A stretch of 32,000 bases of DNA. Origin: Bacteroidales bacterium. GTDB taxonomy: Bacteria > Bacteroidota > Bacteroidia > Bacteroidales > JBDKHP01. A program made the position numbers and the translations under genes. The notes beneath the pieces are model-generated. The model made no database searches. It worked only from the letters and a program-made list of their open reading frames with translations, and was not told the origin of the DNA. Shown here piece after piece: positions 3,185 to 3,357 of this stretch (positions within the stretch are counted from its first letter, which is position 1; each line of letters opens with the position of its first letter). Location: NCBI GenBank assembly GCA_965230435.1, contig CBDDLB010000006.1:2591101-2623100 (forward strand), given 5' to 3'.

Positions 3185-3357
3185 TCCACATGATTTTAGG
3201 AATCAAACTTTGCAATATATAACTTGGGAATACACCCGAACCTGAGCAAAGGCCGGCAGTCCCACTGGGGTTAAGTTTACCCCTTCCTAAAGTTTGGTCT
3301 TAGGGCATGGTTAAAATTCTGATTGGTTGCAAAGACACCGTATAGTAGAGTAAATTT
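3185..3357 (+). ncRNA. candidate bridge-RNA-type guide RNA in the IS left end
   Basis: A ~173-nt non-coding left end lies upstream of the recombinase, against only 42 nt at the right end. It contains cctaaag (3286-3292), identical to the left target flank plus core (3178-3184). It also contains tatagtag (3341-3348), identical to the IS right terminus plus core (4774-4781). Local hairpins include ggggttaagtttacccc and cctaaagtttggtcttagg. Confidence 0.35.

Follow-up and report, generated by a model that had tools for sequence, protein, structure and literature searches.

The segment at 3185-4781 of the window (the whole 32,000-nt stretch of a Bacteroidales contig that was analysed) is very probably an active IS110-family insertion sequence (IS), the left end of which encodes, on the + strand and immediately before the recombinase gene, a bridge RNA (seekRNA) of about 155 nt. 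Three guides in this predicted RNA covary among related elements with the DNA that they match. The bridge RNA mechanism itself has been known since 2024 from IS621 and ISCro4 (IS622) of E. coli and Citrobacter (Durrant 2024, PMC11208160; Hiraizumi 2024, PMC11208158; PDB 8WT6), and what is new here is the combination of features in the layout of the element. The original prediction had noticed three short string matches in the left end and read them as a guide, target and donor set of the bridge-RNA type, a reading that is now supported by a conserved fold and by covariation in about 100 relatives.

The boundaries of the element were located by comparing the occupied site with an intact copy of the same host repeat elsewhere in the window.

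3185..4781, + strand: IS110-family insertion sequence, 1597 bp (empty-site comparison; ten genomic copies)
About 29341..29375, + strand: unoccupied target site, ccccctaaAGggggactt (intact copy of the host repeat)
4774..4781, + strand: left donor sequence plus core, TATAGT+AG, at the right-end terminus (sequence reading; relatives)

The sequence of the empty site at 29341-29375 indicates that insertion was precise and that the element therefore comprises 3185-4781 with AG at both junctions, the first in the flank (3183-3184) and the second at the right end (4780-4781). AG was present at all junctions of the ten genomic copies and of the relatives, and comparison of occupied with empty sites revealed no other duplication. 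The ten copies in the genome are at least 99.8% identical, differing by no more than 3 bases over 1597 bp, and occupy ten different sites, nine of them directly after CCTAAAG and one after CATAAAG; their right flanks read GGGGACT (four copies), TGGGGACT (three copies), GGGAGCT, GACTTC and GTTGGA. Ten near-identical copies, nine of which follow CCTAAAG, reflect recent activity and a preferred site. In the same genome (G000), 16 exact and 10 one-mismatch empty CCTAAAGGGGGACT targets were found (26 places), and the reversed pattern used as a control gave no exact match and one with a single mismatch. The target of the element is a multi-copy host repeat, and most of its sites are still empty.

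Relatives were collected by two contig scans, one of genomes and one of metagenomes, which together yielded 143 loci. Among these, 113 encode relatives with 55-73% protein identity, the left ends of which align well and which were used in the analyses; in the set of about 100 relatives that shows the covariation described below, protein identity is 38-72%. The recombinase gene of the window element consists of two parts in different frames that meet at a run of adenines.

3397..4242, + strand: N-terminal part of the recombinase, RuvC-like DEDD domain (PF01548, DEDD_Tnp_IS110, E 5.5e-22; NF033542, 129.7 bits)
4229..4738, + strand: C-terminal part of the recombinase, Tnp domain, +1 frame (PF02371, E 3.8e-10; NF033542, 70.9 bits)
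4219..4227, + strand: A9 run at the meeting point of the two recombinase frames (sequence reading)

The order of a DEDD (PF01548) domain followed by a Tnp (PF02371) domain is present, split over the two frames, and the NCBIfam entry NF033542 bears the name 'IS110 family RNA-guided transposase'. Judged by homology, translation starts at ATG 3397. The left non-coding end therefore measures 212 nt, longer than the approximately 173 nt assigned to it originally, and the right non-coding end measures 43 nt (4739-4781). When A9 is read as A8, the two parts become one protein of 446 aa without stops.

The interrupted frame had been taken for a frameshift that would need repair. If it reflected decay, the guide logic could be real while the copies are dead, the recombinase having been inactivated by the A9 frameshift and the RNA being a relic, and the frame is indeed broken at 4219-4227 in all ten genomic copies, each of which carries A9 and a split gene. 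We consider this unlikely on two grounds. Ten copies with at most three differences at ten sites indicate that the A9 form itself has spread, and since all ten genome matches carry the split, there is no support for an intact copy having driven the spread in trans. Moreover, a long A-run is kept in more than 90% of 114 relatives: a run of 6-11 adenines lies at the same site in 90/94 single-frame relatives (A8-A11 in 80/94), and the frame is split in 20/114 sequences, the window copy included, all 20 with A8-A11. The run is found about 822-840 nt after the ATG in the relatives (L041-L183). This pattern suggests a maintained slippery site, which fits the sequences better than decay does, and the run could act via transcriptional slippage, frameshifting or on/off switching. 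Production of the full-length recombinase would probably need slippage at the A9 run.

Two of the string matches in the left end were read directly from the sequence: cctaaAG (3286-3292) equals the left flank of the target plus core (3178-3184), and tatagtAG (3341-3348) equals the right-end terminus plus core (4774-4781). The third, agtccc (3258-3263), is the reverse complement of gggact (4783-4788) as had been stated, but it turned out to be only part of a 9-nt segment at 3258-3266 (AGTCCCACT). Such matches might arise by chance, given their length of 6-8 nt and the palindrome-like, low-complexity character of the target. When 3185-3357 was shuffled 200,000 times with its dinucleotides preserved, however, the 8-mer appeared with a frequency of 0.26%, the 7-mer 2.3% and the 6-mer 4.4%, and the 8-mer and 7-mer appeared jointly with a frequency of 5.5e-5, in agreement with the initial judgement that the two together were unlikely to be accidental. 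Chance is in any case already refuted by the covariation across about 100 relatives described below, and we give coincidence a negligible probability. An identity (AGTCC) between the block at 3255-3266 and the beginning of the left end was also considered, but the relatives do not share it.

The fold of the left end was tested on an alignment of 73 sequences and comprises seven helices with 38 pairs. RNAalifold alone returned P1, P2, P3 and the GG/CC pair of P6, whereas P4-P6 were added by eye and then tested. A covariance model, R1, was built from 73 non-redundant sequences.

3230..3386, + strand: predicted bridge RNA gene, span of the covariance model (model R1, 100 bits)
3238-3245 with 3374-3381, + strand: P1, closing the whole RNA (nine pairs, all changed on both sides; 89.8% of cells paired)
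3249-3254 with 3296-3301, + strand: P2, AAGGCC/GGUCUU, stem of the target loop (compensatory change in 4/5 tested pairs)
3267-3270 with 3280-3283 (3267..3283), + strand: P3 hairpin, GGGG/CCCC, between the target guides (alignment fold)
3302-3308 with 3364-3370, + strand: P4, outer stem of the donor-binding domain (compensatory change in 7/7 pairs, many of them G-U)
3313-3318 with 3353-3358, + strand: P5 (alignment fold)
3325-3326 (GG) with 3338-3339 (CC), plus an inner stem (3325..3339), + strand: P6 hairpin of the donor loop (GG/CC 98.6% paired)

In this structure 81% of the cells are paired, compared with 69% in column shuffles, and 30 of the 38 pairs have changed on both sides. The covariation score was 0.39 versus 0.19, a value that 0/500 shuffles reached, and structures slid by 1-3 columns scored 0.15 at most. 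The inner stem of P6 showed compensatory change in all four pairs. G-U pairs are frequent (for example 16, 11, 7 and 10 in P4) and fit the + strand only. The possibility had been raised that the matched segments would fall in stems; instead, all three sit in two internal loops of the conserved fold. The target loop, between P2 and P3, carries agtccc on its 5' strand and cctaaAG on its 3' strand, giving the order right guide, hairpin, left guide, and the donor loop, between P5 and P6, carries tatagtAG, the left guide, on its 3' strand. In both loops the distance from the hairpin to the core AG is exactly 7 bases, and 3 bases separate the core from the next stem.

The minimum-energy fold of the single sequence 3185-3400 was not significant (z -1.15), and a search of 3000-5000 against Rfam 15 in E-value mode returned chance matches only and no bridge-RNA family. 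In the minimum-energy fold the left terminus and the left target guide are paired with each other. This pairing was rejected because it is not kept in the relatives and because the conserved motif at 3216-3227 suggests that the RNA starts downstream of it.

The three segments were then assigned as guides on the basis of the relatives, in which they track the flanks and the right ends of their own elements.

3286..3292, + strand: left target guide, CCUAAAG, 3' strand of the target loop (equal to the top strand, left flank plus core)
3258..3266, + strand: right target guide, AGUCCCACU, 5' strand of the target loop (complement of AG+GGGGACT, top strand of core plus right flank)
3341..3348, + strand: left donor guide, UAUAGUAG, 3' strand of the donor loop (equal to the final 8 nt of the right end with its core)

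The left target guide matches 7/7 bases at nine of the ten genomic copies. Its columns 3286-3290 equal flank positions -7 to -3 in 86-99% of the relatives (Z 9.6-13), and in the relatives the match to the element's own left flank, typically 7 contiguous bases, ends at a flank boundary 34-41 nt upstream of the conserved motif. Because the left-flank boundaries of the relatives were located using the guide itself, some circularity enters these figures, and it is limited, though not removed, by the constant distance to the conserved motif and by a control with borrowed guides, in which an element's own flank was matched at 7.2/9 positions by its own guide and at 5.5/9 by the guides of other elements. 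In 90/93 relatives the left donor guide repeats the final 8 nt of the right end of the same element, and six variants occur: TATAGTAG in 58, TATAGGAG in 19, TATAATAG in 6, TATAGAAG in 5, and TATGGTAG and TATATTAG in 1 each.

For the right target guide, the window register has U3266 paired with the core A and C3265 with the core G, and 8/9 pairs with AG+GGGGACT, the flank of four copies, are Watson-Crick; this register identifies the guide as 3258-3266 with the complement of the core included, as in IS621. Against AG+TGGGG, the flank of three copies, it forms 6 pairs and one G-U. Across the relatives, the block and the element's own right flank gave an anti-diagonal of complementarity in two scans (Z 2.2-4.7 and 4-6), and the mean longest complementary run was 4.14 compared with 3.24 +/- 0.10 in shuffled pairings, 0/1000 of which reached the observed value. 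The register shifts by +/-1 among the relatives and among the ten genomic sites, and many guides have an A opposite the core G. At 2/10 genomic sites, right-flank pairing with this guide is almost nil.

The repeats could also act in DNA, in which case the right-end copy and a pair of inverted repeats would be binding sites of the recombinase and the flank match a by-product of inserting into a repeated element. The element does have a real subterminal inverted repeat.

3216..3224, + strand: left arm of the subterminal inverted repeat, TATATAACT (perfect 9-bp repeat with 4769-4777)
4769..4777, + strand: right arm of the subterminal inverted repeat, AGTTATATA (shares bases with the left donor sequence)

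Within the family this repeat has a 6-bp core, ATAACT/AGTTAT, and it covaries, since its arms change together to ACAAC/GTTGT in the distant relatives L083/L085 and L084. In formal terms the left donor guide and the right end are direct repeats of each other, and no RNA covariation was found on the right donor side, both of which would also agree with sites that are read as DNA. However, the left target guide tracks the flanks across dozens of different targets; these lie outside the element, which a protein-binding site cannot explain, and the seven helices are kept through compensatory and G-U changes that are strand-specific. We therefore regard a DNA-only function as very unlikely and retain the bridge RNA as the explanation of the guides.

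On the right donor side, the positional equivalent of a guide is the tetranucleotide at the end of the 5' strand of the donor loop.

3321..3324, + strand: weak candidate for the right donor guide, GAUU, which could pair with AG+TC (placed solely by comparison with the target loop)

The donor-loop 5' strand comprises 3319-3324; its final bases are A-N-U across the family, and the window has GAUU. Judged by the target loop, GAUU is a weak candidate for the right donor guide; it shows no covariation, since neither the core nor the first left-end base ever varies. Beyond the core AG and the T that follows it, the left end varies freely and no column of the RNA follows it. No diagonal emerged when the RNA columns were scanned against the 12 terminal positions of the left end for identity and for complementarity, and when both strands of the donor loop were sorted by left-end sequence no relation was apparent by inspection. 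Compared with the joined ends, the donor loop thus has a matched left side and, on the right side, only a positional candidate of 3-4 nt. The right side of the donor would be read by at most 3-4 RNA bases (GAUU, 3321-3324) and might otherwise be recognised via the subterminal inverted repeat or a hairpin in the left end. As a separate observation on joined ends, a Bacteroidota MAG contig (L075, JALYRX010000051.1) carries two head-to-tail copies of a relative, with RNAs at 48-195 and 1722-1869. The right end of one copy, ...tatagaag, directly abuts the left end of the next, TATCCCAATAGG, so this tandem dimer preserves a donor junction in DNA.

The left end upstream of P1 contains two further conserved features, the first of which is the hairpin.

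3191..3205, + strand: hairpin near the left terminus (position conserved in the relatives, sequence not)

This hairpin, 6-22 nt inside the terminus, had a mean z of -1.66 relative to shuffles over the first 30 nt of 75 distinct relatives. It may be either a DNA feature of the donor or the 5' stem-loop of a longer transcript, and the latter would apply if transcription started at the junction as in IS621. The second feature is the most conserved block of the left end (consensus AGATAACTTTG; TATATAACTTGG in the window), which the left arm of the inverted repeat overlaps. It contains TAACTTTG at 3220-3227, fitting the Bacteroidota -7 box TAnnTTTG, and a TTG lies 23-26 nt upstream of the -7 box in 44/90 relatives. 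An internal promoter of the Bacteroidota type is likely from these motifs, and it would place the 5' end of the RNA at about 3233, immediately ahead of P1. Because the same block is also an arm of the inverted repeat, the promoter and repeat readings either compete or coexist. A sigma-70 promoter across the junction was considered as well and discarded, the right-end TTGCAA being only 8 nt from TATAGT as judged by eye. No intrinsic terminator was found after P1; the RNA is therefore probably the leader of the recombinase mRNA or processed from it.

Taken together with the work on IS621 and IS1111, these features suggest how the element may function. The bridge RNA would probably be carried in the same transcript as the recombinase gene. 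In the predicted RNA, the long stem P1 encloses a target domain, with the two guides of the P2/P3 loop, and a donor domain, with the left donor guide in the P5/P6 loop. The complex of recombinase and RNA would then bring the junction of the circular form and the target together, and strands would be exchanged at AG.

We compared this organisation with those of the characterised elements. The element resembles IS621 in having a recombinase with DEDD and Tnp domains, an RNA gene that precedes the recombinase in the left end, and two internal loops of which the target loop comes first and the donor loop second. In both, the left guides equal the top strand and the right guides are complementary to it, and the 2-nt core is found in the guides and on both sides of the element. 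The loops of IS621 are ordered stem, left guide, stem-loop, right guide (Hiraizumi 2024, PMC11208158), whereas the guide order of the window element is reversed, with the right guide before the hairpin and the left guide after it. The window element also differs from IS621 in its core (AG instead of CT), in the long P1 that closes the whole RNA, in having no demonstrable right donor guide, in its protein (446 aa versus 326-341, scoring about 20 bits per domain), in the interruption of its recombinase gene at the A-run, and in a likely internal promoter of the Bacteroidota type in place of the sigma-70 promoter at the junction.

Siddiquee et al. (2024, PMC11187229) described the seekRNAs of IS1111-type elements as encoded downstream of the transposase gene, with the match to the top strand 5' of the match to the bottom strand, and that of ISEc21, which is of the IS110 type, as encoded upstream with the reverse order; the same pairing of position and order is repeated in a 2026 review (PMC13604230). 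The window element shares with the IS1111-type elements ISEc11, ISPa11, ISKpn4 and IS4321/IS5075 the succession of a top-strand-complementary guide, a hairpin and a bottom-strand guide. It also shares with them a segment of the left-donor type after a stem ending in ...CCG, and subterminal inverted repeats with a right arm that overlaps the left donor sequence. It differs in that the RNA gene lies upstream, in a left end of 212 nt, whereas theirs lies downstream in a long right end, and in that its inverted repeat is short (6-9 bp, compared with 7-17 bp in the literature). With ISEc21 it has in common the upstream non-coding region and two short matches to the two target strands, but these matches come in the opposite order. 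With phmmer, the window protein had no match to ISEc21, and in the ISEc21 sequence (L196) R1 had no match at E <=10.

The IS1111 layout was read directly on IS4321 of plasmid R751 (1327 bp; L195 13405-14731). In its downstream non-coding region the right target flank recurs in reverse complement as AAAACGGAA, followed by a GGCTC...AGCC hairpin, then TATTTT(C), which equals the left flank, and further on ...GCCG-GATAGATT, which matches the right end. The left arm of the inverted repeat lies 6-17 nt inside IS4321 and 32-40 nt inside the window element. We also observed that CTCATT, the reverse complement of the left-end start AATGAG, occurs in IS4321 in the loop of the hairpin between the target guides, and judging from the sequence it may be a right-donor contact in an unexpected place.

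In layout and inverted repeats the window element is of the IS1111 type, and in its upstream RNA gene it is of the IS110 type, as read from the sequences. Pairwise protein scores (34 bits between the window element and IS4321, about 20 bits per domain between the window element and IS621, and 50 bits between IS4321 and IS621) do not settle assignment to the IS110 or the IS1111 clade. By inference, the size of 446 aa would fit the long-transposase subgroup that Siddiquee et al. (PMC11187229) associated with IS110 itself.

We did not find described in the literature the combination of an upstream RNA gene, the IS1111-type guide order and subterminal inverted repeats. The window element is a counter-example to the rule in the literature (to 2026) by which bottom-then-top guide order accompanies an RNA encoded upstream, and top-then-bottom order one encoded downstream. 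Its layout is relevant to how the two branches are related and to what share of the donor RNA has to read. A tentative reading, to which we give somewhat less than an even chance, is that this widespread Bacteroidota lineage is an intermediate of the two branches, having an RNA of the IS1111 type and inverted repeats with the junction on the other side of the RNA gene, a right donor almost without base-pairing, and a recombinase output set by slippage at the A-run. Durrant et al. proposed a 'translocation of the bridge RNA between ends', and if the intermediate reading were true, this would have been a shift of the junction on the circular form and not a movement of the RNA gene. The element also provides a documented natural set, consisting of the target CCTAAAG followed by GGGGACT, the donor junction ...TATAGTAG followed by TCCAC..., and three assigned guides, as well as about 100 natural reprogrammings of the target guide among the relatives and an uncharacterised, very divergent recombinase (about 20 bits per domain to IS621). 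Most IS110 elements already have a predicted bridge RNA, most recently 32,190 of them with 86 models (bioRxiv 10.64898/2026.10.21.760802), so the family of the window element may already be catalogued among these tens of thousands, and its practical value is modest.

In its own genome model R1 found exactly 10 matches. Beyond the close relatives, it located the RNA immediately before the recombinase gene in elements with protein identity as low as about 40%, in genera that include Dyadobacter, Chitinophaga, Parabacteroides and Adhaeribacter. Among these distant relatives, the left target guide equals the flank at 7/7 positions in 14/24, and the left donor guide equals the right end at 8/8 positions in the 14/24 in which the right end was located. 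A further IS110-family element with 45% protein identity is carried by Citrobacter freundii plasmid P2 (L197, NZ_OW967265.1 88802-92536, CDS 1492-2832) and also occurs on plasmids of Enterobacter and of other Citrobacter species. R1 gave a weak full-length match just upstream of its gene (13 bits, E 0.22), and this candidate RNA resembles the RNAs of three elements from Bacteroidota genomes (L014, L019 and L035).
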